Below, in pieces: positions 2,011 to 19,716 of a stretch of 64,000 nucleotides of DNA. The translations under genes and the position numbers were made by a program. The notes below the pieces were generated by a model. The model saw only the letters and a program-made list of their open reading frames with translations. It made no database searches and had not been told where the DNA came from. Numbering within the stretch: the first letter of the stretch is position 1; every line of letters starts with the position of its first letter. This DNA is from Candidatus Latescibacterota bacterium (lineage in GTDB: Bacteria; Latescibacterota; UBA2968; UBA8231), in assembly GCA_965215195.1 (NCBI GenBank), contig CBDCDC010000002.1:2176001-2240000 (forward strand). Reading direction: 5' to 3'.

Positions 2011-3230
2011 GTGTCTTTTGACAACTAAAGTTATGGATGCGATATTCATGTCGAATCTCCAGCGCGAACTGATACCTGAGGAGTCTAGATATGAAGAAAT
2101 ATATCGTGCGTCTCCCCGACGAAGCGCGTCAGCAGTTAGAAGCTCTGGTCAGCACAGGTCACGCCCCAGCCTACAAGATCAAACACGCGAATATACTTTT
2201 GAAAGCCGATGCAGCAGGGCCCTGCTGGACAGATAGGGCTATTGCGGAAGCATTCGCCTGCCATAGAGTCACCGTCGAAAACGTTCGGAAACGTTTTGTA
2301 GAGCACGGGATGCAGGCGGCCTTAGAACGTAAAAAGCGCGTACAGCCGCCCCGCGAGAAGATTCTGGATGGAGCCGGTGAAGCCCGTTTGATCGCGCTGG
2401 CTTGTAGCCATCCCCCCGAAGGACGCAACCGCTGGACATTGGAGTTACTGGCCGACACGTTGGTCGAACTCAACGTGGTGGACTCCATTTCGTATCGCAC
2501 GGTGGGACGGACGCTAAAAAAAACGAATTGAAGCCGCATCTGCGTACCTGTTGGGTGATTCCACCTGAACAAAATGCAGCCTTTGTAGCCTGCATGGAAG
2601 ATGTTCTGGATCTGTATCATCGGCCCTACGATCCGAAAAGGCCTTGGGTGTGCATGGATGAGCAGCCCATCCAGTTGATTGGAGAAACCCGTATCCCGCT
2701 GCCCGCACGGCCTGGACACCCCCAACGGTATGATTACGAATACGCGCACAATGGCACAGCGGTCAATTTTCTGTTTACAGACCCCTTGGCCGGTTGGCGC
2801 AAGGTCAATGTGCGCTCACGCAAGACCGCTGTGGACTGGGCTTTTGAAATCAAAGAGCTATTGGAGGTGGATTATCCAGATGCTGAAGTGGTCTTGGTGG
2901 TGTGTGATAATCTCAACACGCACACGATTGCCGCTTTGTATGAAGCGTTTGAACCGGCCCAAGCGCGCCGGTTAGTTAGACGACTTGAGTTGCATTACAC
3001 CCCCAAACATGGCAGTTGGCTCAATATCGCTGAAATTGAGTTGCGCATTTTGTCCCAGCAATGTCTAAATGCGCGCATACCCGATGAAGAGACCTTGAAG
3101 GCGGAAACCCACGCTTGGGAACAGGCACGCAACGAAAACCAGAAAGCCGTGGACTGGCGGTTTACCACCGATGATGCGCGCATTAAACTGAAACGGCTTT
3201 ACCCAAAATTTTAAGTGTCAATAGATACTA
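2009..3230 (+). mobile_element. IS630-family insertion sequence, apparently intact
   Basis: Imperfect terminal IRs TAGTGTCTTTTGACA / TAGTATCTATTGACA; duplicated TA inside a CTAG target (2009-2010 and 3229-3230); HTH and DDE ORFs. Confidence 0.95.
2091..3214 (+). CDS. IS630 transposase in two ORFs (2091-2531 HTH; 2528-3214 DDE) joined by a probable programmed frameshift
   Basis: A8 run at 2516-2523 (LKKTN); motifs MDEQ, CDNLNTH, YTPKHGSWLNIAEIE; typical C-terminus ARIKLKRLYP. Confidence 0.93.
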
Positions 3231-3552
3231 GTAGTAAATGGATCTCTTGGGGAAGGTCGTACTCTACCAAGTGGCTTTCTAACTCGTTGCAATACGGGCA
3301 GGTAGGGGTTACAAAGATCAGCCCTACTCGCTGCCCCTTAAAACCGCTGAGTCTGACGGGGTCCCCTTGCACGGAGGGCAATTCAAAATCAGGGGCATCC
3401 GTTCCCTCAGACAGAGGCTCAGAACGCTTTGTATCCCCCTCGCTCCAGACGATCCCCACTGATTCCTCAGACTTCCCCTTAAAAATTAGCGCGAGCAACA
3501 AGACCACGCTGACAAGCCCGGCGATCTTCCAATGCTTTTGATCGGCCATCAT
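3229..3552 (-). pseudogene. 5' half of a membrane-anchored TlpA/AhpC-type redoxin (CPYC)
   Basis: N-terminal TM, APDFELPSVQGDPVRLSGFKG, TPTCPYC; interrupted at CTAG by IS630. Confidence 0.9.
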
Positions 3553-4100
3553 TGTGTCCTCTCTTCTTCTATTACTTTTTGCGCGGACTGCACGATGTTC
3601 TCAATCGGAAAGCCTGAACCCCGAACGGCCTCGACGATCCGCTGTTCCCCATCCACCAAAAGCGCGGTCGGGAAATTCGTGATGTTGAGATGCTCCATTG
3701 TCAGCAGCGTATCTACGGCAATGGGAAAGGCCAAGGCGTGTTCGGTGACCTTTTCCATCAATCCTTCCCGCGTGTTGGCAATCATCAAGATGGGAATATC
3801 GGTAGCCGCTTCCCCTATAATGGGGTACATGGTATCACAGGCATCACAACCTAACAGGGTGAAGACCAGCAAGTAAGAAGTACCTTGGTACAGGTAAGTA
3901 GAAATAGAGGCACCGTCTAACTGTTCGAGGTCGTATTCCGGGATGCGTTTCCCTAGCAGGTAGTCTAAGCCGGTAGCCACTGGGGCGATTGGCGGATTGT
4001 TGATTTTTGTCGCCAATAATATGCTAGTCCCCAAGAAGATGCCCAACACTGTTGACAGCAACAGCATCGTCGCTTGCGGTTTCGAGCGCGTAGCTTCCAT
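3549..4100 (-). CDS. Membrane-anchored thioredoxin-fold redoxin (CDAC)
   Basis: N-terminal TM, LLVFTLLGCDAC, FPIAVD, TNFPTALLVD; ATGA overlap with the next gene. Confidence 0.85.
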   Translation of the reverse strand: MEATRSKPQATMLLLSTVLGIFLGTSILLATKINNPPIAPVATGLDYLLGKRIPEYDLEQLDGASISTYLYQGTSYLLVFTLLGCDACDTMYPIIGEAATDIPILMIANTREGLMEKVTEHALAFPIAVDTLLTMEHLNITNFPTALLVDGEQRIVEAVRGSGFPIENIVQSAQKVIEEERTQ

Positions 4101-4118
4101 CGTGTACCTTTCCTTTCC

Positions 4119-5276
4119 CTAAAGCGCATCGAACAACGGCTGAATCCACCGATTGGCCGGCCGGACGATACTGCCGGCCCATATCAGGGTTAGGCTGACG
4201 CCAACCATTAAGGCCGGCGCAAAAGGCAGCGACAGTTCAATCTCTACCTGATCATCCCATTCGCGAAACAACCCCTTCTTTTGTAAGTCTTTTAATTGGC
4301 GCACTTTCCTGATGGTCAACGGCTTTCCCTTTCGGCCTATTCGCTCTCGTGTATCTCTACTCTGCTCGCTGAATGCGACCACTTCGACTCGATCTTTGGC
4401 GGGGGTTTCATAAATCGACTGGTGTAATACCATGCCCGGTTGTAAGGCATCGATAGAGACCGGCTGTACAAACTTCTGGTAGTCGAGAGAATGGATATAC
4501 ACATAGACGTTCCGTATGCCCCACAGCACAGCCCAAAGCACCAGATAGATCAGATAGTTCCCGGTGCTAATGGCGCTAAAGATACCGATTACAAGCCCGG
4601 GAACGATCAAGATGATTTTATTGGGTGCCTTAGTCATATCTTCATGAATCAAATAGAGCACCGCTCCCACCACGATAGCCTCGGCAAGAGTCAACGTCAC
4701 ACCGACTAACGTCGTCCCCCCTAACACCAGTCCGCTCAGGCCGGCCGCCTCAACCCCAGAGCGCAACCAACCCCAACTCATGCCCTTTCTAGGCTCGCTT
4801 GCAGGGGTCTCGATGGATTTTGTGGGTTTATGGATGACCAGAAGGACTAAAAGAAAAACGGTATTGGTCAAAATGGTATTGACCAACAAGGCCCAAATAG
4901 GAGCATTCAGCGAAAAGAAGGCCAAGGAAAACGTCGGCCATTGCCCACCAAACAACGTACTCGGTATGGCCGCGACCATGGCCCAATACAGCTTGGCATC
5001 TCCCGCCCCCCAGAAGCCATACATAAACAACAGGTAGCCGACGACAAATCCCAACAGACAGGATAGACCGATCTGGACGAGTGTAACCTCGCCCAAGACC
5101 CACAATCCCATCTGTCCCATCAACCCAAGACCGAGCAAGATCCAAGTAGCCGAGTTGGGAATCTCTCTATGGCTGATGTCCGTATAGGTGGTGTAGGAGG
5201 CGACCACCATGATCGAGCACAGTAAGGCCCATTCTAACAAGAAGACGGCATTGACCTCATTCAGCAACACATTCAT
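4119..5276 (-). CDS. A24-family prepilin/preflagellin peptidase with extra TMs and a FlaK-like C-terminal domain
   Basis: Two catalytic Asp motifs, YTDISHREIPN and GAGDAKL; C-terminal LQPGMVL...LPFAPAL. Confidence 0.85.
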   Translation of the reverse strand: MNVLLNEVNAVFLLEWALLCSIMVVASYTTYTDISHREIPNSATWILLGLGLMGQMGLWVLGEVTLVQIGLSCLLGFVVGYLLFMYGFWGAGDAKLYWAMVAAIPSTLFGGQWPTFSLAFFSLNAPIWALLVNTILTNTVFLLVLLVIHKPTKSIETPASEPRKGMSWGWLRSGVEAAGLSGLVLGGTTLVGVTLTLAEAIVVGAVLYLIHEDMTKAPNKIILIVPGLVIGIFSAISTGNYLIYLVLWAVLWGIRNVYVYIHSLDYQKFVQPVSIDALQPGMVLHQSIYETPAKDRVEVVAFSEQSRDTRERIGRKGKPLTIRKVRQLKDLQKKGLFREWDDQVEIELSLPFAPALMVGVSLTLIWAGSIVRPANRWIQPLFDAL

Positions 5277-5289
5277 AGCCCAATACTCC

Positions 5290-5880
5290 TCAAAAGGTGA
5301 TTCCCGTGGACTCTGCTAGCCAAGTTCCGGCTTGGCTCCATTGAGTCACCAAGGCATTCACGGACCGGGTAGCTCCGGTTATTCCATCGATATCTCGGCC
5401 TACGACCAAAGGCTCCGAGAGTGCCCGCCCGCTCAGTTGGGCAAAGAAGGCGGTCGGATCGAAGGGGCCATCGGCCAGTTCCCAAGATTCCAAGGGCAAA
5501 ACAGCCGCAACGCGATCTTCTTTCGGCCCGATGAGGATGCCCGCTAGTAGATCGCGGCAGGTCGCACAGGCAATATCGTGGCGCACGACGACTAGCTTGT
5601 AGGCCAACGCCTCGTCGTTTGTAAGAACGCGATAGGCTGACAATACACCGGAACGCGGCGCGGGTGTGGCCTGATACACTTCTGTTAGGTAGAGAGCGCT
5701 CGCGGTGGAATCGAACTCAGCGAGACGAAGAAGCATGACTTCTTCTGGTGGAATAGACGGCAGGGGCGATTCGGGGCTGAGGCTCTTTTCATAAAGGCCC
5801 ATAAGCAGGATGATCGCAGGTATTAATAGCAGGATTAAACCGGAGTAAATCCAGTATAATGGATGCTTAGGCTGTCCCAT
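5290..5880 (-). CDS. Membrane-anchored FMN-binding protein with a CxxC motif
   Basis: N-terminal TM; flavinylation motif DGITGATRS; CATC. Confidence 0.75.
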   Translation of the reverse strand: MGQPKHPLYWIYSGLILLLIPAIILLMGLYEKSLSPESPLPSIPPEEVMLLRLAEFDSTASALYLTEVYQATPAPRSGVLSAYRVLTNDEALAYKLVVVRHDIACATCRDLLAGILIGPKEDRVAAVLPLESWELADGPFDPTAFFAQLSGRALSEPLVVGRDIDGITGATRSVNALVTQWSQAGTWLAESTGITF

Positions 5881-5926
5881 GCCGTCTTATCCTCGTTCGA
5901 GTCAAATAGCTTAAAAGAATGTCCTC

Positions 5927-6748
5927 TTACGGCAGCTTCGTCGTCTTTTTCGCTTCCACCCGCCCATCAATTTCGACCTGATAGACATACACCCCGGCGG
6001 CCACCGCATTGCCCACCTCGTCGCGGCCATCCCACACGAACCGATGACTCCCCGCCCGCAGCGACCCGTCCCACACCTGCCGCACCCGACGACCCAACAC
6101 GTCGTACAGAGCCAAGTGGACCCGATCTTCGTCGTTAGCGAGATCGAGGGGAATGACCATTGTGGGATTGAACGGATTGGGATAGGCATTGCCCAGCCGA
6201 TGCTGCGCCGGCCGCGCTGCCGCCGACATCTGCACCGCCGTCGCAGTCGGTTGCTCCGCTTCCGAACAGGGCGTGGACGAGCACTCGCAATCTAACCCAG
6301 CAATGTCGTCATCCACGTTATAGTACGTGGTGCAGTACCGGTATGGCGTGGTCGAGTTTCTCTCCGCGCACCCGTCGTGGTAGCGACACTCCGTCTTTGG
6401 GGGGGTGAGGCAAGGGGCGGTCGGCTGCTCAGCCTCCGAACAGGGGATGGAGGAGTACCAGCAATCTCCGGTTATGTAGAGGTTACACTGCAAGTCCAAG
6501 CCATAGGTGCAGTAGCGGTATTGCTCGGTCGAATCCGCCGGGGCCCTATCGAAGCAGGGGTGGGGGCTGGAACTGGAGCTACAGCCGATCCAAGTAGTAG
6601 TCCCACACCGCACCCTGTCGTCGTCGTCGGATTCCCTAGCACTGGCGAGGATCGCAAGCCCCGCAAGGGCGATGATAACCCACCCCAATCCCTGCCGAGC
6701 CGGGGCCAAGCCGCTGGATGAGCCGATAAATTCACGCAAACTGTTCAT
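5927..6748 (-). CDS. Secreted Cys-rich protein (2 x 7-Cys repeats) with a C-terminal FlgD-Ig/sorting-type domain
   Basis: Leader shared with 9289-9570; repeats containing YRYCT and ending SS.PCSEAEQPTA; tail AYPNPFNP...YDVLGRRVR...WDGRD...GVYVY. Confidence 0.85.
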   Translation of the reverse strand: MNSLREFIGSSSGLAPARQGLGWVIIALAGLAILASARESDDDDRVRCGTTTWIGCSSSSSPHPCFDRAPADSTEQYRYCTYGLDLQCNLYITGDCWYSSIPCSEAEQPTAPCLTPPKTECRYHDGCAERNSTTPYRYCTTYYNVDDDIAGLDCECSSTPCSEAEQPTATAVQMSAAARPAQHRLGNAYPNPFNPTMVIPLDLANDEDRVHLALYDVLGRRVRQVWDGSLRAGSHRFVWDGRDEVGNAVAAGVYVYQVEIDGRVEAKKTTKLP

Positions 6749-6768
6749 AGTTTACCTCTCCTTAGTTG

Positions 6769-6830
6769 CTCAGTACATCCGCGGCCGTGCCACTACGGTA
6801 CTCGAAGTGAGGATTGAGCAGTAGCCGACA
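6769..6830 (-). promoter_or_regulatory. Conserved 5' leader element of the Cys-rich precursor genes, copy 1 (hairpin)
   Basis: Homologous to 9590-9654; AGTAC-CGTA-GTGGC-ACG-GCCGC-GGAT-GTACT stem. Confidence 0.55.
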
Positions 6831-6861
6831 CTATCTCACGAAATGAATTCATCCCCATCCC

Positions 6862-9045
6862 TCAAGGCAGCTTCGTCATCTTTTTCGCTTCCACCCGCCC
6901 ATCAATTTCGACCTTATAGACATACACCCCGGCGGCCACCGCCTTGCCCGCCGCGTCGCGGCCATCCCACACAAACCGATGACTCCCCGCCCCCAGCGGC
7001 CCCTGCCACACCTGCCGCACCCGACGACCCAACACATCGTACACCGCCAGCGACACCTCCGCCGCGTCCGTCGCTAAATCAAGAGGGATCACAACTGCCG
7101 GATTAAACGGATTGGGATAGCTGTCGCCGAGCCGATGTTGCACCGGCCGCGCTGCCGCTGGCGTCATCACCGCCGTCGCCTGCTCTCCCAGCGAATTCTT
7201 GAGTACATGCACTCCACCCAAGATCGGATCCAACACCACCAAGTCGAGATCGCCGTCGTTATCCATATCCCCGGACAGCACGGATCGCCCATTGCCCTCC
7301 AGCCAATGCCGCTCCCCGGCTTGAGTCGGGTTGACACTCCCTCCCCATTCGACAAAGACCCCAAAGCCCGAAGCCCGATCCCCGCCGATAAACACCCAGT
7401 CGTCCACCCCATCGGCGTTGAGATCGCGCACCAGCACCTTCGAGCGCCGCAACAGCCGATCATCATACAGCACCTCGGCTTCTAAGCGGTCTCCGGCTTC
7501 CTTGCTCTGCAAGACGATGCCCTTGCTCCCTTCAACTTGATCGGATGCCACCTCCGTGAGGAAATCCACTTGCCCATCCCCATCAAAATCGCCCACCCCT
7601 AACGTCGATGTATGTTCATCGAATTCAAAGATCGCGCCGCTCTGAGGCTCTTCGCCCAAGGCCCCCACAAACCACCTGTAAATCCCCCTCGACTCCCCGC
7701 GGATCGGCGTCCAAAACACGTCAAGTGTCTCATCGCCCGTAAAGTCGCCAATATGATGGGGTACATCGGTTTCGGAATACGCCACCTCCTCGAAGGTCCA
7801 TACGCCCTGTTCTACATCCCATACCTCTAGCGTGCTATAAAACTCCGCCGTACCCGCTATCGCTTCGTCTAAAGTGCCTTCATACGTAGCCCCTCCTACA
7901 ATTAATTCGGCCTTCCCGTCGCCATCCCAATCCGCCACACTATGAACCCATCTATCGACCTGCACGAGCATCTCGACTTGGAGATCCGGCCCGATAGACC
8001 ACACTTCTGTGCGGAGCTCCCGGTTGCTTCGCGATATCGCGATTTCGTCTTGACCATCGCCCGTCAAATCAGCACCCATCGCCTCTAAGTTCACCCCTGA
8101 GAAGACTAGTACCGTTTCGCCACCAATAGTAACCTCCCTTGGTTCCTCTTCTTCCTGTATAACAGGCCCCCGTTCTAAGGTCCCTTGCCCGTCATTGAGG
8201 GCCATCAGCCAGCCACTTATAGGTCTAGGCCCCTCTGATTCCGTTTCCATTCCCGTTTCCCAGAGGCCAAAAAGGTCTAAGTCGCCATCGCCATCCAAGT
8301 CCGTCAACACGCCCCCTTCCCTGTCGCTTAGATAGCCTTTTCTATGTCCTCTAGCGCCTACTTCTCCTATGCCTAGCGCAATCGGATAGAACACTGGTGA
8401 GGCAAAAAGTCCAGCCCCCTCAGAACGAAAGTAGTACTCTACGTGCGGCGGCGGCAGTTCCCCCTCTATCTGCTCTTCCACGCCCGTCAACTCGATCCAG
8501 TCGATCTCAAACGACTCAACGGCACCCGAACCATCTAGAAAAAAACCGAGTCGAATATTTTTCAATAGGCCCTCCCAGTGGTCTTGATCCGCCAACAACA
8601 GCACCACTTCCTGCCACTCGGTGGTAAAGACTATTCGTTGTCGGGGTTCGGGGCTGTCCTCAAAAAGGCCAAGGCCTACATAGCCTGAAGAGTAGTTTTC
8701 CCAATACATCCAAACCACCCCTTCCGTAGCGCGGTCATGGACGGTGCGGCAGCGGATGCGGACTTGATCGAACAAGCCCGAATCATACCCAATGGTATAA
8801 GAAACCACTTCGACATTCGACTGCCCAGAGGTGGTCAAATTCTCGAGGACGGAGGGCGAGACCGTGATGCGCCACACGCCGTCTTCAACCACCCCCGGAA
8901 ACTGGCTAAATTCACGCGTACCACCCACTTTATGAGTTTCTTTAGGGGTCCACCCTTGCGTCGTCCCATCGTCGAAATCCCATTTGATCGCCTCGGCGGG
9001 ATCGCCCCATAACACCACGCATACAATAACGGCTAGCTTCAACAT
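6862..9045 (-). CDS. Secreted FG-GAP/VCBS-repeat protein with an N-terminal beta-sandwich and a C-terminal FlgD-Ig domain
   Basis: Signal peptide MLKLAVIVCVVLWGDPAEA (SD AAGGAG); DLDGDGDLD, DWDGDG, DFDGDG and DLNADG repeats; YPNPFNP tail. Confidence 0.88.
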   Translation of the reverse strand: MLKLAVIVCVVLWGDPAEAIKWDFDDGTTQGWTPKETHKVGGTREFSQFPGVVEDGVWRITVSPSVLENLTTSGQSNVEVVSYTIGYDSGLFDQVRIRCRTVHDRATEGVVWMYWENYSSGYVGLGLFEDSPEPRQRIVFTTEWQEVVLLLADQDHWEGLLKNIRLGFFLDGSGAVESFEIDWIELTGVEEQIEGELPPPHVEYYFRSEGAGLFASPVFYPIALGIGEVGARGHRKGYLSDREGGVLTDLDGDGDLDLFGLWETGMETESEGPRPISGWLMALNDGQGTLERGPVIQEEEEPREVTIGGETVLVFSGVNLEAMGADLTGDGQDEIAISRSNRELRTEVWSIGPDLQVEMLVQVDRWVHSVADWDGDGKAELIVGGATYEGTLDEAIAGTAEFYSTLEVWDVEQGVWTFEEVAYSETDVPHHIGDFTGDETLDVFWTPIRGESRGIYRWFVGALGEEPQSGAIFEFDEHTSTLGVGDFDGDGQVDFLTEVASDQVEGSKGIVLQSKEAGDRLEAEVLYDDRLLRRSKVLVRDLNADGVDDWVFIGGDRASGFGVFVEWGGSVNPTQAGERHWLEGNGRSVLSGDMDNDGDLDLVVLDPILGGVHVLKNSLGEQATAVMTPAAARPVQHRLGDSYPNPFNPAVVIPLDLATDAAEVSLAVYDVLGRRVRQVWQGPLGAGSHRFVWDGRDAAGKAVAAGVYVYKVEIDGRVEAKKMTKLP

Positions 9046-9102
9046 GAGACCACAGCTCCTTTCCAACAGGTAAAATTCCGACCGACCGCGTACTATCCGT
9101 GC

Positions 9103-9260
9103 AAAAAAAAAAGAGCACCGGCTTAATCACTGACGTTACGCAGTTTTCCAGAAAATTCTCAATTTCACCCCAACATCTTGGGTCAACAGGCTTCGATAAA
9201 CCACAAGATAGAGAGCGACTGCGTAACGTCAGTTAATCACTACGATTAAACCGGCCTCTT
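9103..9260 (-). terminator. Intrinsic terminator after the 10-Cys peptide gene, interrupted by a MITE
   Basis: Without the MITE the sequence is AAGAGG-CCGG-T-TTAATC-gtagt-GATTAA-G-CCGG-TG-CTC followed by a T10 run; an uninterrupted homolog lies at 17247-17285. Confidence 0.7.
9130..9232. mobile_element. 103-bp MITE
   Basis: Perfect 15-bp TIR CTGACGTTACGCAGT (9130-9144 / 9218-9232) with a 7-bp target duplication TTAATCA (9123-9129 and 9233-9239). Confidence 0.88.
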
Positions 9261-9288
9261 ACCCCTTAGAAGCGGCCTTGATCTCTCC

Positions 9289-9570
9289 CTATGGGCAAAC
9301 GCAGCACTCCCAATGAGAGCATTGTCTCCTGCAGTTCACATCCATCGAACATGTCCTACATTCGCACTCCTTTATCCCATTCGTGTGCACAGCGCAATCT
9401 GCGTTAGACCTACTCTGTGTCCGTGGGTCGGGCTCGCAGGCAGCAGCTTCTCGCGCCCCGAGCAGGATGGCGACCCCGGTGAGGGCACTGATGACCCACC
9501 CGAGCCCCAACCCCTGCCGCATCGGAGCCAAGCCGCTCGACGACGTGAAGAATTCCCTCAAGCTATCCAT
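9289..9570 (-). CDS. 93-aa secreted Cys-rich peptide precursor (10 Cys in a 49-aa core)
   Basis: Start re-called at ATG 9570 (SD AGGAGG): MDSLREFFTSSSGLAPMRQGLGLGWVISALTGVAILLGAREAAA-CEPDPRTQSRSNADCAVHTNGIKECECRTCSMDVNCRRQCSHWECCVCP. The leader is paralogous to that of 5927-6748. Confidence 0.85.
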   Translation of the reverse strand: MDSLREFFTSSSGLAPMRQGLGLGWVISALTGVAILLGAREAAACEPDPRTQSRSNADCAVHTNGIKECECRTCSMDVNCRRQCSHWECCVCP

Positions 9571-9589
9571 GCTTCTTTCCTCCTGATAA

Positions 9590-9654
9590 CTCCAGTACCT
9601 CCGCGACCCCATGCCGCTACAATACTGGAAGTGAGCGTTGAGCAATGGCCGATA
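9590..9654 (-). promoter_or_regulatory. Conserved 5' leader element, copy 2 (hairpin)
   Basis: CCAGTAT-TGTA-GCGGC-ATGGG-GTCGC-GGAG-GTACTGG; homologous to 6769-6830. Confidence 0.55.
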
Positions 9655-9714
9655 CGAGTTTGTATTATCGCACCTCCTTTCGTCTGCATCGGCCTCGCCT
9701 TCGCGGAGTATATA

Positions 9715-9731
9715 TGCAAGTTCCGTGCCAA
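9715..9731 (-). promoter_or_regulatory. Sigma-54 (-24/-12) promoter
   Basis: TTGGCACGGAACTTGCA matches TGGCAC-N5-TTGC exactly; a sigma-54 activator gene lies directly upstream. Confidence 0.9.
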
Positions 9732-9851
9732 CAAGCAGGCCACGCACAAAAAAATCCTTTAGGAGGAACCTAAAGGATTGAAAAACATGATACTTAAAAT
9801 TATGGAAAGGGTCTCTCTACGATGCGCGGCCTCAGCCATTGGCGCAAGACA

Positions 9852-9947
9852 GCATACGATTTTCCGTATTTAATACGATTTTCCGTATTTAATACGATTT
9901 TCCGTATTTAATACGATTTTCCGTATTTAATACGATTTTCCGTATGC
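9852..9947. repeat. Five tandem copies of ATACGATTTTCCGTAT (19-bp period, TTA spacers); probable upstream activator sites
   Basis: Copies start at 9854, 9873, 9892, 9911 and 9930. Each is an ATACG-N6-CGTAT inverted repeat, ~125-215 bp upstream of the sigma-54 site. Confidence 0.9.
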
Positions 9948-10087
9948 ACTGAGGCCCCACCATCCCACTTTCGCTCCACAGCATTGAGGCGGGCGAAAGA
10001 AGCCGCGGGATAGACTTAAAGTAAAGCGACCCGCTTTGAAGACTTGGCTTTTGAGTTAGCTCCGGGGCCCTTGTAAAACGTTGCCCT

Positions 10088-13000
10088 CTACTTGCCCGTG
10101 CCGGGCTTTTTCGGTCGGCTTAGTCCATAATGGCGCATGCGGGAGCGCAGCCGTTCCGGGTTCATATTCAACACTTTGGCCGCGCCGCGCTCGCCATAGA
10201 CCATCCAGTTGGTCGCTTGCAGGGCCGCCACAATCTGCTGCTTTTCGTCCATGCCTTCGGCCGGTCCCGTCGCTTCGTCCCCCTCCCCGGTTGGCCGTGC
10301 CGCCGGCGCGAGCAACTTCCTTTCGTCCGCGTCTCCGGCTTGTTGCGCAACCTCCAGCGGCACATCCACCACTCGGATCACGCCCCCCTCGCACAACAAG
10401 ACCGCCCGATGAATCACGTGCTCCAACTCGCGCACATTCCCCGGCCAAGCATACGTCTGCAAGTACGCGACCACCCCGTCGGCTATCGTCGGTGCCGGCC
10501 GCTTGAGCTCTTGGGCATACTGCTCGGCAAAGTGCGCCACGAGCGCCGGTAGATCCTCGGGCCGCTGCCGCAGCGACGGAAGCGTTAACGTGAAGGTGTC
10601 TAAGCGGTAGAACAGGTCTTCGCGGAACGTACGTTCGGCGATGGCCTGCCGCAGGTCGCGGTTGGTCGCCGCAATGACCCGCACATCCACGGGTATAGGC
10701 CGCTGGCCGCCGACGCGGGTCAGGGTCTTCTCCTCTAAGATGTTCAGCAGCACCCGCTGAGACTCCAACGGCAAATCGCCGATTTCGTCCAAAAAGAGGG
10801 TGCCGCCATCGGCCAGTTCAAAGCGGCCAAGCTGGCGAGCATGGGCACTGGTAAAGGCCCCTTTCTCGTGGCCGAACAGTTCGTTTTCGATCAGTCCTGC
10901 CGGGAACGCCCCGCAATTGACGTGGATGAAAGGACGATCTCGGCGGGGGCTGGTGGCGTGGATGGTCTGCGCCAGCACGCCCTTGCCCGTGCCGGTCTCG
11001 CCCAGCACCAGCACCGTCATATCGGTCTCAGCGACCTGCGAGACTTTTTTTAGCGCCTCGTGCATGGCCGGACTGTGGCTCGGCACAACATGCTCAGCCG
11101 CCCCGCCCAGTAGCTCTTCAAAGGCTCGGAGGCGTTCGGTTTTGCTATCCGGGTGGACTTGTATAGCCAAGCCGACCACCTCGGACCGCAGGCTATCGCG
11201 GTCTATGGCCTGCACCTCAAAGCGGTAGTCGCCCACCGGCAGGGCCTTGTACGCCACCGCATCCGCGGCCGTGAACGCGCTCCATGGTTCGGCGGGGCCG
11301 TACCCTACCAAGCGATGGCGATAGCGCATCTGACTCGCACCGCTGCGGAAACTGATGCCTTGGAAGTGAAGGCGGATTTCCGGGGTGTCCTCGGAGCAGG
11401 ATACAGCGTCGGGCATGGCCAAGCGGTGCCCGGCCAGCACCTCGCGGATCACCAACCGCGGCGGCGTGTCGCCCGGCTGGTAGGCCACCAGCCCCGCCCG
11501 CGTCCCAAACCACACCCGACCATCGCGGTCGCACAAAACCGCCTCGACGATGTTGCCGAGCGCAGACGGCCCCAAGCGGATGCTCTGGAAGGTCTCGCCG
11601 TCGTAGCGGAGCACACCCCCGCCGCTGGTCCCAATCCAAATATGGCCCTGCGAGTCGGCCGTCAGCGCCAAGATGCCGTTGGCCGACAGCCCGGAATTGG
11701 TGGTGGTAAAGTGGCGCACCTGCCCGGACGAGAGGTCGAAGGCGAAAAGCCCCTTCGCCGTGCCGACCCACAACGTATTTTGGTGCTCCCACAACACGTG
11801 GACGTAGGCCATCGCCACGGCCTCGGCCCTCGCCACGGGGCGGAATTGACCCTCCTTATAGCAATAGAGCGCTGGTACGCGGCCGAAGAAACCGATCCAG
11901 AACACGCCGTTTTGGTCTTGCAGCAGGGCGCGGCACTCGTCGCCCTCCCACGCGTCGAAGGGCGTGAAGCGGTTGTCTTCTATCCAGCCAAAGCGGCCCT
12001 GGAGCGTACCAAGCCATATACGCCCTTGCTCATCTTCGCACAGCCCGGTGATTTTTTCCGAGTAGGTTTCGCCATCCACCGCGATCGCGTGCGGCGTCTG
12101 ACCCTCCCACTGGTACACCCGGCCGCTCTCCCCCCCGCTCCACACCTGCCCCTCGCCATCCACCATCAGCGCCGAAACGGTTTCAACCTGATCGAGCGGA
12201 CGAATCCGACCGTTTTCCATGCAGGCCATGCCGCTCATCGTGCCAAGCCACAGCCGGCCGGCCGCGTCTTCGCCCAAGTGGAGCACCTCCCGGTCGGGCA
12301 AGCCATTGACTTCGGTGTAGTACTGGATGCTGACCGGATCGCAAAAGACCAGCCCGCCCCCCCAAAGCCCGATCCAGATATTGCCCTCGCGGTCTTCATA
12401 CGTCAGGCGCGTACTCGAAAAGTCAACGTCCAGCAAGTTCGTGGAGAAATGATGCCACGCCTGCCCGTCGTAGCAGATCACCCCTCGACGCGCCATCCAC
12501 AGCCAACCCCGAGCGTCAGCCCGCACGTGCCGCGTCCCCTGCTGCCCGGTGTGTGCGGCCTTACGGCCTACGTCAATGAAGGCCAACTGCTCAGCGTCCG
12601 GATCGTACCGGCCAATCAAGGCTTCGCTACCCGTATAGTGGAAGGCAATCCACAGCGAGCCGGCGGGGTCTTGGGCGAATTTCCACGGCCAGCGCACCGC
12701 CCGCTCGCTGGTATCCATGCGTCGCCCATCCAAGCTGAGGACGCCTCGGGTCCACGTCGCCAGCCACGTGGTGCCGCCCGCGTCCGTAGCCATATCGTAC
12801 ACCCGCCCCAGCGGTTGGCCGCCCACATGCGTTAGGCACTTTGTGCAGCGGCCATCGGCAAACCACGCCACGCCCGCGCCGGTCAGAGCCAACACCGAGC
12901 CATCCGGCTGGGCTTGCAGCCCCAAAATCTCGTTGGAAGGCAGCCCGTGCTCCGTGGTGTACACCTCAAAGCCGCGCCCGTCGTACGCGGCGATTCCCCC

Positions 13001-13252
13001 GCCCAACGTGCCGAACAGCAGCCGCCCGTCGGCTTCCTCGGCAATGGCCATGACCGTCAGATTCGGCAGGCCATCTTCGAGGCCAAAGCGATCGAATCGC
13101 GCACTGTCGAACCGGCTGACGCCGCCGTCGGCCGTGGCGATCCAGAGAAAGCCTTGGCGGTCTTGGTAGAGGTCTTCGACGTGCATCCCGCCCAGCCCGT
13201 CAAAGACGGTGTACTGGGTGCTTAACACATGCTCAAAGGATAGGGCGCTCAT
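10088..13252 (-). CDS. Sigma-54-dependent Fis-family activator with N-terminal two-component-regulator propeller and YYY domains
   Basis: Repeated D..G.lWigT..G propeller blades; YYY domain (YRHRL...[15 protein letters not shown]); [45 protein letters not shown]; C-terminal HTH. Confidence 0.93.
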
Positions 13253-13285
13253 ATTGTCCTTTCGGCGTTCGTTAGGGGGTAGGTC

Positions 13286-14862
13286 CTACATCCCCCACAC
13301 CTCAATCACCACCCCACTAGACGACGTCTGGCGGCAGTGGAACACCTTGTCGTCCCACCGCCGCCCTTCGCGCCGGTCGAATATCACCAGATGACCCGCC
13401 TCGGCCTCACAGCAATCCATGTAGGCCGCCGTCTGTTCCAATCCCTCGGCGATAGTCTGCTCCAAGCTCTGGTGCAGAATTTTGCATTCGATCACCACTT
13501 TAAGCATCCGCTCGCCCTGCGGCCACACGATCAGCAAATCCGTCCGCCGCCGACCCAATCCATATTCCCGCTCAATCCGACCGCCGCTGTTGACGATGCG
13601 CTGCAAAAACGCTTGGAGCAGCAACTGCGGCCCCGCTTCCTTGTACTGGAACCGCTCCACCCAAGGCTCCGAATGCTCGCGAAAAAACCCTTGGAACGCC
13701 GCCAGCAACTTGCCCATGTCCAAGCTCCCGTCGGCATCCACATACCACGTCATGTCTTGGGCTAACGTCGCTTGGGTGGTATAGGTCAGTTCCCGCGGAA
13801 TGACTTCGCGGTAAAGCGGATTGGCGATGCACATGGGGTCGTCCATGCTGATGAGGCCCAAATCGCGGACGTACATCAAGTCGTCCGGGGGCAGCGAGCG
13901 CACCTCGGTGCCGCTCAGCAGCGGCTCAACCACCCGCCGCACCCGCTCCTCTTGCAGCTTGTCGGCCAACTGATCCAAGTGCGTCTCGCGCCGCAGGATG
14001 AGCTGCTCTTGCGCGGCGCGGATCGCCTCGGCCGCGACCGGACGATGCCACGCCGCGGCAAATTCGCCGTGGAAACAGGCTTCGTCGGCCAGCGCGTTGA
14101 CCAGCCACGGCTGCCCTTGCGTCTGCGTCCAGACCACGTCCAGCGCCTCGGCGGTAAACTGTTGGCCCGTTTCTGCGGTGTGCTGACCCAGCAACGCCAG
14201 CACCTCCTCCCGCGAAAAATCCCCCAACCGCAGCGACCGCGCCTTGATGTTGAACGCACTGCCGCCAGTGATGATCGCGTTCTCGGCCGTCGATTGAATG
14301 CGGTAGTCGCGCACATCGCGCACCCCGCACAGCACCACGCTCTGCGGAAAGTCCTCGGGACGCAAATCGTAGCCGGCCCGCAATTGCCGCAGTACCGACA
14401 CGAGGGTGTCGCCGACCAGTGCGTCGATCTCGTCAATCAGCAGCACCAGCGGCGTCGGCTCGGCTCCCGCCCAGCGGCTGAGCACCTGCCGGAGGGCTCC
14501 ATCGGGACCGTACCGCTGCAACGCATCGAACCAGATTTCCTCGACAAACTCGTCTTGCAGGGCCTGCCGGGCGCGCAAGGCCAATTCGCCGAGGATCGCC
14601 CGCATGGCGCGCTGGGTATCTTCCCGGCCCGCCTGTCCGACCTCGACATTGACATAGGCGCAGCGGTAGGCCCCTTCGGCATTGAGCAGCTCGCGCAACG
14701 CCAGCGGGCCGAGGTCTTGCCCGTCTGACGCGGCGCGTACAGGACGAAGTACTTCTCGTCCCGCACCAGTGCAAGCACCTCGGCCAAGTTCAGCCGATCC
14801 AACGGCGCGATGTAGTAGTGCTTTGTGGGCTTGACCGGACCAGCCGTATTAAAAAAACGCAT
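13286..14862 (-). pseudogene. AAA-family ATPase with a C-terminal PD-(D/E)XK-like domain, frameshifted
   Basis: Paralog of 43692-45332. A 1-nt deletion just after APRQTGKTSA (~14706) splits it into ORFs 14437-14862 and 13286-14698; this could be a sequencing error. Confidence 0.85.
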
Positions 14863-15068: not shown

Positions 15069-17207
15069 TTACGGCAGCTTGGTCGTCTTTTTCGCTTCCA
15101 CCTGCCCATCCACCTTGACCTGATAGACGTACACCCCAGCGGCCACATCCTTGCCCACCTCATCGCGCCCATCCCACACAAACCGATGGCTGCCCGCCCC
15201 CAGCGGACCATCCCACACCGGCCGCACCCGACGACCCAACACATCGTACACCGTCAGCGACACCTCCGCCGCGTCCGTCGCCAAATCAAGGGGAAGCACC
15301 ACCGCCGGATTAAACGGATTGGGATAGCTTGCGCCCAGCCGATGTTGCACCGGCCGCGCTACTGCTGGCATCAGCACCGCGGTCGCCTGCTCGCTCAACG
15401 AACTCTTGAGCACATGCACCCCACCCAAGATCGGATCCAACACCACCAAGTCGAGATCGCCGTCGCCATCCATATCCCCGGACAGCACGTATCTCCCGGT
15501 TCCCGCCAGCCGATGCCGCTCCCCGGCTTGAGTCGGGTTGACACTTCCGCCCCATTCGACAAAGACCCCAAAGCCCGAAGCGCGGTCTCCGCCGATAAAC
15601 ACCCAGTCGTCCACCCCATCGGCGTTGAGGTCGCGCACCAGCACCGGCGAGCGTCGCAACAGCCGGTCATCGTATAGTACGTCTGCTTCTACGTTGTCTC
15701 CGCCGCGCTTTCTATACAAAACCAGCCCCTTGCTACCTTCTGTTTGATCGTGTATGAACTCCGTGAGGAAATCCACCTGCCCATCGCCGTCAAAATCGCC
15801 CACCCCCAACAGCCCTATCCTCTCATCGAATTCAAAGACCTCGCTCTCCTGAAACTCCGCATCCAAGGCCTGCACCCCCACAATCCACCTACTCTCCCGC
15901 CCGATGCCCTGCGTCCACAACACGTCGGGGCGTCCATCGCCGGTAAAGTCGCCGGCCTGAGCAAACGAATAGGTTTGGGAAATCGCCACCTCCGTGGCGG
16001 TCCACACGCCCTGTGCTACATCCCACACCGCTAACGAGCTAAAATACGTCGCCGTACCCGCCAGCGCTGCGTCTAAAGTGCCTTCAAACGTAGTCTCCCC
16101 GACAAATAACTCGACCCGGCCATCGCCATCCCAATCGCCCACCCCCTGAATCCAGCTATCGATCTGCGCGAGGACCTCGACTTGGAGTTCCTGATTGATA
16201 GACCACACTTCGGTCCGGGGCTCCCGGTTGCTGCGTGATAGCGCGATTTCGTCCTTACCATCGCCGGTCAAATCCGCACCCAGTGCGCTTAAGACCGCTC
16301 CACCTTCAGCTACTTCCTCTATAACAGGCCCCTGTTCCAAGACCCCTCGCCCGTCGTTGACGGCCATCAGCCAGCCACTTTTAGTCTCAAGAGGCCCATA
16401 CTTATTCTCTGTTCTCATTTCCCACAGGCCAAACAGGTCTAAGTCGCCATCGCCATCCAAGTCCGTCAACACGCCATCCGTATGATCCCTCTCCCCTATA
16501 TACGACCCTCCAATAGGGGCTTCCCCTAGGCCCGGGGCAATCGGATAGAACACCGGCGGCGCAAACAGGCCGGTCCCCGCAAAGTCAAAGTAGGACGCTA
16601 CCGGCGGCGGCGGCCGTTCTCCTTGGAGCATCTCTTCCACGCCGGTCAACTCGATCCAGTCAATCTCAAACGCCTCGACCACCCCAAGATCGGCATCCAA
16701 ACCAGAATTCAGACTAAAACTGAGCTGGATATTTTTTAACAGACCCTCCCATCCGTCTTGACCATCCAATGAGAGCACCGCTTCCTGCCACTCGGTGGTA
16801 TAGACTATGCCTTGTCCAACATAGCTCTCAAAAAAGAAAAAATCTCCAAGACCTGAAGATCTTTCCCACTCGATCCAAAAAGTACCCTCCGTAGAGCGGT
16901 CATGGACGGTGCGGAACCGGACGCGGACTTGATCAAACAGACCCGAATCATACCCGATGGGAGAAGAAACCACCGCGACCCCCGGCTGGGAGGTACGCAA
17001 ACTCTGGGTGACGGCGGGATCGACCCGGATCCGCCACACGCCATCGTCGACTACCCCTGGGAACTGGTGAAATTCACGCGTACCCCCCGATACAAGCGCT
17101 TCTTTGGGCGTCCACCCTTGCGTCGTCCCGTCGTCGAAATCCCACTTGATCGCTTCGGCAGGGCCGCTCCACAGCACAACGCCAGCAACAACAGCAAATT
17201 TCAGCAT
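15069..17207 (-). CDS. Secreted FG-GAP/VCBS-repeat FlgD-tailed protein, paralog of 6862-9045
   Basis: MLKFAVVAGVVLWSGPAEA-IKWDFDDGTTQGWTPKE; same architecture, near-identical C-terminal third. Confidence 0.88.
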   Translation of the reverse strand: MLKFAVVAGVVLWSGPAEAIKWDFDDGTTQGWTPKEALVSGGTREFHQFPGVVDDGVWRIRVDPAVTQSLRTSQPGVAVVSSPIGYDSGLFDQVRVRFRTVHDRSTEGTFWIEWERSSGLGDFFFFESYVGQGIVYTTEWQEAVLSLDGQDGWEGLLKNIQLSFSLNSGLDADLGVVEAFEIDWIELTGVEEMLQGERPPPPVASYFDFAGTGLFAPPVFYPIAPGLGEAPIGGSYIGERDHTDGVLTDLDGDGDLDLFGLWEMRTENKYGPLETKSGWLMAVNDGRGVLEQGPVIEEVAEGGAVLSALGADLTGDGKDEIALSRSNREPRTEVWSINQELQVEVLAQIDSWIQGVGDWDGDGRVELFVGETTFEGTLDAALAGTATYFSSLAVWDVAQGVWTATEVAISQTYSFAQAGDFTGDGRPDVLWTQGIGRESRWIVGVQALDAEFQESEVFEFDERIGLLGVGDFDGDGQVDFLTEFIHDQTEGSKGLVLYRKRGGDNVEADVLYDDRLLRRSPVLVRDLNADGVDDWVFIGGDRASGFGVFVEWGGSVNPTQAGERHRLAGTGRYVLSGDMDGDGDLDLVVLDPILGGVHVLKSSLSEQATAVLMPAVARPVQHRLGASYPNPFNPAVVLPLDLATDAAEVSLTVYDVLGRRVRPVWDGPLGAGSHRFVWDGRDEVGKDVAAGVYVYQVKVDGQVEAKKTTKLP

Positions 17208-17246
17208 GATATCACCGATCCTTTCCAACCGTGTAGAATAAGGAAA

Positions 17247-17285
17247 AAGGGACTGGCTCAATCGCTACGATTAAGCCAGTCCCTT
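17247..17285 (-). terminator. Intrinsic terminator, homolog of 9103-9260 without the MITE
   Basis: AAGGGACTGGCTTAATC-gtagc-GATTGAGCCAGTCCCTT followed by Ts on the minus strand. Confidence 0.75.
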
Positions 17286-17556: not shown

Positions 17557-18342
17557 TCACAGCAGTTCCGGCCGGAACTCCACGGCGTTGACGGCCTTTT
17601 TCCGGTCGCCATCGTCCTCAACCTCAAACTCGATGATCGCGCCGCGCACCTTGAGATGGGCAAAGTCCGCGTTGGACACCACCCCACCCCGCACCGTGCG
17701 CAGGTCGGTGATGTGCAGAAAAATATCTTCGCGTATGGTGTCCATCCCCAAGCCGGTCTGCACGGTCAAGAACCCGTAGCCCTTCTCCTCGTTGACCGCG
17801 TGTAGGATGCCGCGCAGGCGCTGAGTCGTACCGCGCTCGGAGAACAGAATGTCGGGCACCAAGTACCCAGAAAAGTGGTGATCTACCTCTTGGCGCAGGT
17901 CGGTGCTGGTGTTCATAAAAGACAGCAGATCGACCCGCTTGCCCCGGTTTTGCAGGGCGCGCACCAAGCGCACGAAATCGCCATCGCCGCTGCCCAACAG
18001 CACGTAGTCCAAATTCTCCGACTGCAACAGGGCATCTATCGCTAGCTCTAGGTCGGCGTCGGCCTTGACGATGGTGTCGCCTTCCGGAGTGAGATAGCGC
18101 CGCACTTCCTTGAGGATCAGGTGGTAGCCCTCCCGCCGCGCTCGAGTGCGATAAATTTCCCTCTTTTGGCGGTACTCTAAGTCCGTCTTTTCGCGCTCGC
18201 GGTCAATGGCCATATAGGCGTTGGCCCGCACCACGACCGCCCGCTGCGCCTCTACGAGGGCCTTGATCTGGCGAAACCGGATGGCGTAGCCGCCGCAGCG
18301 ATTGAGATTCTCCATATCGAGAAATATGCCTGCTTTTAGCAC
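17557..18342 (-). CDS. NYN (LabA/DUF88) domain protein with a C-terminal cold-shock domain
   Basis: Start re-called at GTG 18342; FLDMENL, KADADLELAIDAL, LGSGDGDF; C-terminal EEKGYGFL...DIFLHITDL. Confidence 0.88.
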   Translation of the reverse strand: MLKAGIFLDMENLNRCGGYAIRFRQIKALVEAQRAVVVRANAYMAIDREREKTDLEYRQKREIYRTRARREGYHLILKEVRRYLTPEGDTIVKADADLELAIDALLQSENLDYVLLGSGDGDFVRLVRALQNRGKRVDLLSFMNTSTDLRQEVDHHFSGYLVPDILFSERGTTQRLRGILHAVNEEKGYGFLTVQTGLGMDTIREDIFLHITDLRTVRGGVVSNADFAHLKVRGAIIEFEVEDDGDRKKAVNAVEFRPELL

Positions 18343-18366
18343 GTGTATCCTTCTTAGTTGGTAAGT

Positions 18367-18392
18367 GTAGGGGCACCCCTCGTGGGTGTCCT
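18367..18392 (+). repeat. REP-like palindrome (GTAG foot)
   Basis: GTAG-GGGCACCC-CTCGT-GGGTGTCC hairpin in an intergenic gap. Confidence 0.6.
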
Positions 18393-18404
18393 GTGGGGTG
18401 GGCG

Positions 18405-19481: not shown

Positions 19482-19716
19482 AATGGCCCTCCTTTCTATG
19501 CCGCAGACAACCTACTCATCCCCGCAAAGTTTCGCCAGAGCCTGCCCGCTCAATTGGCGATGCCATCGCGCATACTCGAACCGCGAGGACCATTTTGCGA
19601 TCTCGCCGCAATTTTCCGCTGCCCGTACGGCTCACAGAACGGTAGCTCACCTTGACAGTCTTTTAAGCTATCGACTCTTTTTGCAGCCACCCAAGGCATA
19701 CCAGACCGGAGGCAGC

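Follow-up and report, generated by a model that had tools for sequence, protein, structure and literature searches.

A peptidase of family A24 is usually read as a sign of type IV filaments, and the proteins that it cuts are taken to be pilins. What is such an enzyme for in a lineage that keeps A24 genes without detected filament genes, beside one family of secreted Cys-rich proteins? The question is raised by a 64,000-nt stretch from a Candidatus Latescibacterota bacterium (assembly GCA_965215195.1, contig CBDCDC010000002.1, positions 2,176,001 to 2,240,000), here called the window. It codes for a FlaK-like A24 peptidase in an operon-like gene row with two Cys-rich proteins of 93 and 273 amino acids (aa), which share an N-terminal leader. 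A first-pass annotation, made from the sequence alone, had read this leader as a degenerate Flp-type (class III) prepilin signal on variable cores. The window and its own genome (G000; 95.2% complete, 2 contigs, the window lying on contig C2) were analyzed. We do not take the leader for a pilin signal; in our judgement, there is an even chance that it is a dedicated sorting signal. It would belong to a filament-independent A24 processing system for a library of disulfide-rich secreted peptides, with cleavage at a conserved Gly by the A24 peptidase and at A-x-A by signal peptidase I (SPase I).

The genome gave no match to models for Flp (PF04964; E <= 0.1), the N_methyl pilin (PF07963), the T2SSE ATPase (PF00437) or the T2SSF platform protein (PF00482); the controls for the last two were positive in 13 of 14 known genomes. 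There are only two A24 genes in the genome, one in the window and one in a second full locus (C2:2358874-2376000). The latter codes, with proteins 40% identical to those of the window, for an activator, an A24 peptidase, an FMN_bind-like protein and two thioredoxin-fold proteins, and the redox genes are followed by three pairs of a leader gene and an FG-GAP gene. The leader scan of small open reading frames (ORFs) in related genomes, which the first-pass annotation had proposed, was run with a hidden Markov model (HMM). Among 168 genomes of the phylum, the leader was found in 36, a long A24 gene (E <= 1e-20) in 29 and both in 28. The 29th A24 genome (G167) has a leader gene 133 bp downstream, which is detected by the local HMM only (E 0.004). 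The 29 genomes carry 45 long A24 genes. For 39 of them, a leader gene lies no more than 5 kb away (no more than 500 bp for 13). This linkage holds down to 27-33% A24 identity, and in the lineages that diverge most, the leader gene directly follows the A24 gene. Three of the six remaining genes have no leader match on their contig (one is that of G167, and at least one, in G019 on contig C212, lies on a contig shorter than 3 kb), and for the others the nearest leader is 10, 59 and 85 kb away. In the class of the own genome (132 genomes, searched with PF01478), 31 genomes have both (32 with G167), 3 have only A24 (2 with G167), 5 have only the leader, and 93 have neither. One genome (G004) pairs a short A24 protein (187 aa) with a leader gene. 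The leader is absent from all 18 genomes in other classes that carry canonical PilD-like genes (57-83 bits). As related genomes are not independent, these counts are strong gene-neighbourhood evidence and not statistics.

The two leaders of the window (starting at 9570 and 6748, reverse strand) are identical at 30 of 42 positions (71%; E 8e-16, BLASTP of the 93-aa against the 273-aa protein), while BLASTP gave no significant alignment of the cores. The shared leader on two Cys-rich proteins, as first noticed, is thus confirmed. In the 93-aa protein, it comprises residues 1-44 (MDSLREFFTSSSG-LAPMRQG-LGLGW..., a hydrophobic helix, A-A-A), and in the 273-aa protein residues 1-38, ending with A-S-A. 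A six-frame scan of the own genome (regular expression and HMM) revealed 13 leader places. Six are of the window's type (subfamily A, E 1.5e-27 to 5.7e-21), and six (four small, two long) form subfamily B, which has a longer head (M-K-S-L-T-F-V-L-E-A-T-L-L-A-P-L-V-E-F-A-T-S-T-S-G-H-V-E-P-R-Q-G-L-A-L-G-W...); the thirteenth is a 44-aa fragment. Both subfamilies come in two formats, namely peptides of 90-120 aa that end with C-x-C and proteins of 255-300 aa that end with a sorting domain of the type IX secretion system (T9SS). In the small format, the core measures about 50 aa. A profile search of about 5.8 billion proteins returned at least 390 metagenomic relatives at E <= 0.01 (390 matches counted among 8000 candidates scored). 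Those that are named are all annotated as "hypothetical" and stem from metagenome-assembled genomes labelled Gemmatimonadetes or Gemmatimonadota. No NCBIfam or Pfam family matches the N-termini of the two leader proteins. A leader-only word search for longer architectures yielded five proteins, four of them with a FlgD_ig/T9SS domain. A literature search, with most subscription journals and supplements outside its reach, found no paper that describes the leader family or links an A24 peptidase to Cys-rich substrates other than pilins.

The motif counts are based on 39 unique leader strings, which come from about 25 genomes, very divergent ones included (the row of L034 was trimmed). The F is present in 35 of 38, and the G six residues after it in 37 of 39 (the exceptions being one D and one A); a W follows twelve residues after the G in 36 of 37. 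The F-x5-G spacing, the most constant trait of the leader, is therefore kept in distant homologs, so that its loss there, which the first-pass annotation had named as a refuting condition, is not observed. Positions +7/+8 ("GL") vary more (G 26, A 5, I 3, others; L 29, F 6). The second cut site that had been suggested there (RQG|LG) is less conserved, as its G is absent in the paralog at C2:2151531-2152346 (LRK-WVAI) and is replaced by A, V, I or N in divergent members. The A-x-A after the hydrophobic stretch, also noticed at first pass, holds throughout the family: A is at -1 in 25 of 26 aligned leaders, A or V at -3 in 25, and Pro or Gly precedes the site. In 14 sequences of subfamily A, the invariant residues are F7, S10-S12, G13, W25 and A42-x-A44 (numbering of the 93-aa protein). 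In many divergent leaders, the motif is S-E-S-G with F or Y as the next residue. Mostly polar residues fill the six to seven positions behind the Gly in subfamily B and among divergent members (e.g. H-V-E-P-R-Q, F-A-S-P-H-K, E-V-S-S-K-Q).

The head before the Gly has 12 residues in the window copies and 12-50 across the family, exceeding 26 in some relatives. Its net charge is <=0 in 26 of 34 leaders, and the stretch from the Gly to the helix has a net charge of at least +1 in 20 of 34. With this charge pattern, removal of the head would leave a textbook-like class I signal peptide. The entire N-region up to the helix is net negative in 112 of 120 relatives and neutral or +1 in both window copies (charges up to the helix, as well as the Cys and entropy values below, refer to the best 120 of the at least 390 relatives). 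As read from the alignments, the leader starts with a short, mostly neutral or acidic head that closes with [F]-x2-S-[E/S]-S-G. Six to seven residues, often the sole carriers of positive charge, lead to [G/A]-L-x3-W, with which a hydrophobic helix (about 16-18 residues) opens; a break at Pro or Gly and the A-x-A come last.

The leader is kept by purifying selection, and the cores are hypervariable. Column entropy is 0.23-0.43 bits at leader positions 11-50 versus 2.3-2.5 bits in the core, and the switch from conserved to variable occurs right after A-Q-A|D-x-C. Codon alignments were made for 13 genes from each subfamily (13+13), each gene from a different genome. The ratio of nonsynonymous to synonymous differences (pN/pS) is 0.12 and 0.29 in the leader (the latter in subfamily A; pS 0.36-0.41, pN 0.04-0.12) and 0.72 and 0.75 in the core (the latter in subfamily A; amino-acid identity 33-38%). 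Since leader pS is considerable and pN low, conservation reflects selection on the protein and not recent duplication. The first-pass picture of a conserved leader on divergent Cys-rich cores is borne out by these values. The cores have 4, 6 or 8 Cys in 112 of the 120 relatives, and in 114 the spacing between the leader and the first Cys is constant. These even counts point to disulfides. In one long subfamily-B paralog (L005 16092-16988, C2:2779092-2779988), an inner repeat re-uses the leader end (V-V-A-G-L-A-V-V-F-G-A-V-D-E-T-P-A) and is followed by a second core, which suggests unequal recombination within leaders.

The 385-aa peptidase scores above the family cut-off (PF01478, 35.0 versus 26.5 bits), has both catalytic Asp motifs and adopts the GxGD fold in its model; the FlaK_Arch match (1.8e-7) is below cut-off. 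In 12 sequences that are 26-39% identical to that of the window, D33 (T-D-x4-R-x-[VI]-P-N) and G92-D93 are invariant. The AlphaFold2 (AF2) model (mean predicted local distance difference test, pLDDT, 72.5) is best matched by FlaK (3s0x_B; Z 11.9, root-mean-square deviation 3.7 A, 159 of 186 residues aligned; next Z 6.6). From its sequence and model, the enzyme looks active and FlaK-like. It has four additional helices (about 166-265) and a small beta domain (268-350). A search of PDB-chain sequences with the A24 alignment gave 0 matches. Two distant relatives carry C-terminal domains of archaeal peptidases (PF06819, PF06847). A co-fold of the enzyme with leader residues 1-50 scored 0.39 (best of three controls 0.00; the runs agree in >=83% of contacts, partner pLDDT >=60), a weak pass that, by the calibration of the tool, is more often wrong than right unless the pairing is likely beforehand, and that does not locate the cut site. 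Binding of the acidic head by a basic beta domain (268-350) was considered and dropped, as the net charge of this domain ranges from -5 to +3 in 12 orthologs.

We propose the following course of events. The sigma-54 activator would switch on the operon, the promoter sequence of which was found. The hydrophobic helix would insert the precursor N-in/C-out. The co-encoded A24 peptidase would then cut on the cytoplasmic side behind the near-invariant Gly, which is G13 in the two proteins of the window, as linkage and conservation suggest, and would leave a short, positive, class I-like stub. SPase I, encoded by one gene in the genome, would cut after A-x-A (A44 of the 93-aa and A38 of the 273-aa protein) and free the core into the periplasm; motif conservation and the need of T9SS cargo to leave the inner membrane argue for this step. 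The two thioredoxin-fold proteins and the FMN_bind-like protein are predicted to form or shuffle the disulfides. Forms with a sorting domain would exit by T9SS, and the small forms might stay periplasmic or take another route. No filament would be made. A tentative generalization, to which we give somewhat less than an even chance, is that an A24 "prepilin" peptidase has moved out of filament biogenesis. It may have become dedicated to the leaders of a hypervariable library of disulfide-rich secreted peptides under sigma-54 control, with a two-sided cut (A24 after the Gly on the cytoplasmic side, SPase I at A-x-A on the periplasmic side), and would be an N-terminal counterpart of the exosortase and rhombosortase systems. 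As a bolder extension, it is tempting to speculate that the released conserved head is itself a cytoplasmic signal, read by the propeller domain of the co-encoded sigma-54 activator.

Several points weigh against two-sided processing. The conserved A-x-A could let SPase I alone mature the proteins. Known A24 substrates have their hydrophobic tract directly after the Gly, and most members of this family do not. Leader genes without an A24 match are carried by G011 and G022 (closed, 94% complete) as well as by G024, which is only 75% complete; some leaders of G022 look decayed or chimeric (one without the Trp, one with a foreign head). Leader remnants without A24 also occur in G039 and G041, where the loci are broken by transposases and look degraded. 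The D and the A that each replace the Gly once, and the kinship among the genomes, which makes co-occurrence overstate the support, belong here as well. Foldseek against the PDB gave no match at E <= 0.001 and listed FlaK no higher than rank 21; the FlaK match came from a wide VIA search, and confidence in the A24 model is only moderate.

These points lead to the alternative that survives best, although we regard it as rather unlikely: an ordinary Sec-dependent class I signal with an extended N-region. SPase I would be the sole maturation enzyme, and the A24 peptidase would have another role, such as the removal of spent signal peptides in the manner of a signal-peptide peptidase, or the cleavage of some unrelated substrate. 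Targeting, translation control or a chaperone contact would then explain the conserved head, and the conserved hairpin in the 5' untranslated region (5'-UTR; see below) would fit such further layers of control. An h-region is present, as is the A-x-A, with its upstream Pro or Gly in nearly all members, the boundary between conserved and variable sequence falls exactly at A-x-A, T9SS cargo has to be released from the inner membrane, and the leader proteins of G011 and G022 are kept without A24. Class I n-regions, however, are normally short, basic and fast-evolving. Here, the corresponding region is long and mostly acidic, it contains a near-invariant Gly, and its pN/pS is low. Moreover, the FG-GAP proteins of the same operons use plain short signals, and A24 genes in the class occur almost only alongside the leader family.

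Very improbable, in our view, is a family of ribosomally synthesized and post-translationally modified peptides (RiPPs), in which the leader would be the recognition sequence of a modifying enzyme and the cores would be modified and then exported. The first-pass annotation had pointed to a RiPP or toxin library, and the pattern of a conserved leader on a hypervariable core does stand. A radical SAM gene (19429-20667, forward strand) could be taken as a maturase, but it lies on the opposite strand at a distance of about 10 kb and was not seen in the second locus. The loci examined have in common only genes for A24, FMN_bind-like and thioredoxin-fold proteins (Pfam was run on the genes of the window and a few orthologs). 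As the conserved neighbourhood has no maturase, RiPPs are only an evolutionary analogy, and a secreted peptide library fits better. The leader also holds a membrane helix and an SPase I site, and the even Cys counts point to disulfides instead. An NYN-domain gene (17557-18756, reverse strand) lies at a similar distance from the leader genes and is likewise not seen in the second locus; both genes are probably unrelated to the leader system.

This leaves the prepilin itself. The Flp layout is F-x5-G, followed by two polar residues at +5/+6 and G-L at +7/+8. The window copies share all of these, so that the alignment with Flp, with RQ in place of EY, was fair for them. Elsewhere in the family, E-Y is replaced by R-Q, H-K, S-K, E-Q and others, and polar residues come behind the Gly in subfamily B and in divergent members, so that the likeness is not a property of the family. 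A class III signal, as described in PMC4471445, has a hydrophilic leader of 6-26 aa that ends in Gly, then about 21 hydrophobic residues interrupted by Glu5, has no class I cleavage residues after this tract, and works with an ATPase and a platform protein; in archaea, according to the same source, Glu5 is often absent. Of these traits, the family has only the Gly that ends the head, beside the peptidase encoded nearby. The residues directly after the Gly are polar in most members, so that a hydrophobic start is arguable only in the window copies (L-A-P-M/A-R-Q), and a fixed Glu is lacking at position +5, where R, H, S, K, E and Q occur and the two window copies have R. A true degenerate prepilin, cut by A24 at G13 or at RQG|L and polymerizing into a filament or pseudopilus through its retained helix, would account for the Flp-like layout of the window copies and for the co-encoded A24 peptidase, but it is scarcely credible given the lack of Glu5, the polar residues after the Gly, the A-x-A that the class III definition excludes, the absence of Flp, N_methyl, ATPase and platform genes, and hypervariable cores of which some carry T9SS sorting domains.

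The proposed sorting leader has counterparts with similar logic. In the exosortase/PEP-CTERM, rhombosortase/GlyGly-CTERM and archaeosortase/PGF-CTERM systems, a polytopic membrane protease co-occurs, from genome to genome, with a paralogous protein family bearing a short conserved signal by a membrane helix. In those systems, the signal sits at the C-terminus and the proteases come from other families; the present signal is N-terminal, with a protease of family A24. With class III/A24 systems (PilD, TadV, FlaK, PibD, EppA), the locus shares a GxGD protease encoded beside presumed substrates that have an N-terminal, near-invariant Gly before a helix. It differs in that filament machinery and Glu5 are lacking, the Gly is in most members separated from the helix by six to seven polar residues, an A-x-A is present, the cargo is hypervariable and partly destined for T9SS, and the enzyme has four extra helices. 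With respect to Flp/Tad pilins (PF04964), the Tad ATPase and platform protein are missing in addition to the Flp match and the E-Y. In known class III systems, the cut is described as occurring on the cytoplasmic face (PMC4471445). The same source describes non-pilin cargo with a peptidase-A24-type signal, the sugar-binding proteins of the Sulfolobus bindosome (PMC4471445). Their localization relies, however, on a canonical type IV filament system (Bas), and none was found here. A conserved pre-region, a hypervariable mature peptide and a fixed Cys framework are also described for conotoxins and mussel MgCRP-I (PMC4558851, PMC11860864); these are eukaryotic families that use the ordinary endoplasmic reticulum signal peptidase and have no linked leader protease.

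What is new is, with about equal chances for and against, an A24 peptidase-substrate pair that works outside type IV filaments. If the cut is confirmed, the substrate rule for bacterial GxGD proteases becomes wider, and a new N-terminal sorting signal emerges which annotation has missed (the members being called "hypothetical" and the enzyme "prepilin peptidase"). It would also reveal that bacteria hold a large natural library of small peptides rich in disulfides, complete with its own module for export and folding. In any case, caution is advised against inferring pili from an A24 match alone.

The features of the locus are listed in Table 1.

Table 1. Features of the leader locus (positions in the window)
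Feature	Positions	Strand	Evidence or remark
IS630-type transposase (HTH_32 + DDE_3)	2091..3214	+	abuts the second thioredoxin-fold gene
Thioredoxin-fold protein, 113 aa, C-P-Y-C	3211..3552	-	domain scans, paralog comparison
Thioredoxin-fold protein, 183 aa, membrane-anchored, C-D-A-C, ResA/MauD-like	3549..4100	-	ResA 7.5e-8, MauD 2.5e-5 (both below cut-off); AhpC-TSA 0.0031
FlaK-like A24 (GxGD) aspartyl peptidase, 385 aa	4119..5276	-	PF01478 above cut-off
FMN_bind-like protein, 196 aa, membrane-anchored, C-x-x-C and G-I-T-G-A-T flavinylation-type motif	5290..5880	-	sub-threshold PF04205
273-aa precursor: leader, Cys-rich middle, C-terminal T9SS type A sorting domain	5927..6748	-	FlgD_ig 4.4e-11; TIGR04183
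5'-UTR hairpin before the 273-aa gene	6769..6805	-	same hairpin as before the 93-aa gene; kept although the gene has no promoter of its own
FG-GAP/VCBS propeller protein, 734 aa, T9SS sorting domain	6862..9066	-	Pfam/NCBIfam domain matches
93-aa Cys-rich precursor	9289..9570	-	BLASTP partner of the 273-aa protein by its leader
Leader-coding segment of the 93-aa gene, codons 1-44	9439..9570	-	14-sequence alignment, subfamily A
Conserved 5'-UTR hairpin before the 93-aa gene	9591..9629	-	about 20 nt ahead of the ribosome-binding site
Sigma-54 promoter TGGCACGGAACTTGCA	9715..9730	-	about 145 nt upstream of the 93-aa gene, exact consensus
Perfect 19-bp tandem repeat, 4.8 copies, unit ATACGATTTTCCGTATTTA, inner ATACG/CGTAT palindrome	9854..9945		between activator gene and sigma-54 promoter
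Sigma-54 enhancer-binding protein, 1054 aa, Reg_prop propellers + Y_Y_Y domain	10088..13252	-	Sigma54_activat 6.4e-68

The exact sigma-54 consensus occurs twice in the window (0.06 matches expected), and the promoter is conserved ahead of small subfamily-A genes in other genomes. The other match (TGGCACTTTGCTTGCT, 53445-53460, forward strand) lies inside the ORF of a TPR protein (52964-54907), upstream of two genes with CHU_C/T9SS domains. No signal peptide is evident in the activator, and a 1047-aa paralog of it heads the second locus. The 19-bp array is, by its position, likely a candidate activator-binding array. A similar repeat is found in G022 (L018 5363-5671), as a repetitive pseudo-ORF adjoining the activator gene. 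The 5'-UTR hairpin has the pattern CCAGTA...GCGGC...GTCGC...TACTGG and comprises 13 pairs, 4 of which show compensatory change among 14 sequences. An Rfam scan of 3000-14000 yielded nothing above noise and thus no family for this hairpin.

The 93-aa gene starts at an internal ATG of a listed 152-aa ORF. Its core contains 10 Cys and ends with C-V-C-P, and in the AF2 model of the precursor (pLDDT 49.9) the only confident element is helix 23-43. Among the 120 relatives, 79 end with xCxCxx or xxxCxC (9289-9300, reverse strand, in the window). Such an end recalls the C-terminal CXC described for small secreted DUF4266 proteins in flavinylation/thioredoxin clusters (PMC8238504), and there is no Pfam match here. 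The hypervariability, the fixed Cys frame and the pairing with FG-GAP surface proteins suggest that the peptides may act in recognition or antagonism at the cell surface.

The FMN_bind assignment of the 196-aa protein is based on sub-threshold matches (PF04205) in four of four orthologs (E 0.003-0.055) and on an Atlas lead (0.90). A conserved C-x-x-C (I-A-C-A-T-C-R-D) is located upstream of its flavinylation-type motif, which follows the [S/T]GA[S/T] definition given in PMC8238504, and an ApbE gene is present elsewhere in the genome. As in other extracytosolic FMN-binding modules, a protein of this type is encoded with thioredoxin-like proteins; it differs from them by the absence of DsbD, DUF3570 and DUF4266 matches and by its tie to A24 and a hypervariable family. 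From their sequences, the FMN_bind-like and thioredoxin-fold proteins may fold the cores by making or shuffling their disulfides. A flavin-plus-dithiol periplasmic protein with two thioredoxin-fold proteins, and no DsbD/CcdA in the locus, could be an unusual disulfide-forming module. The second thioredoxin-fold protein has 113 aa here versus 188 aa in the paralogous locus and ends against the transposase gene, so that the window copy may be truncated.

Between the two leader genes, within 5927..9570, sits the gene for the 734-aa FG-GAP protein, which has an ordinary short signal peptide, unlike the leader of its neighbours. Small leader genes are accompanied by an FG-GAP gene in all loci of the genus examined. 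As T9SS type A cargo, the 273-aa and the 734-aa protein both have the sorting domain above cut-off (TIGR04183, 27.4 and 29.6 bits, cut-off 23), and the sortase PorU is encoded in the genome (628.6 bits, cut-off 420). FG-GAP paralogs with a T9SS sorting domain (about 700-740 aa) are greatly expanded (C2:2140000-2176000, 455000-473000, 2358000-2376000 and 2763000-2782000; 15069-17261 in the window). All of them begin with a plain signal, followed by I/L-x-W-D-F-D-D/E-G-T-T. They are interleaved with leader genes, with genes for proteins of about 450 aa that start with M-K-R-P-W-K-V-P-F, and with glycosyltransferase-like genes.

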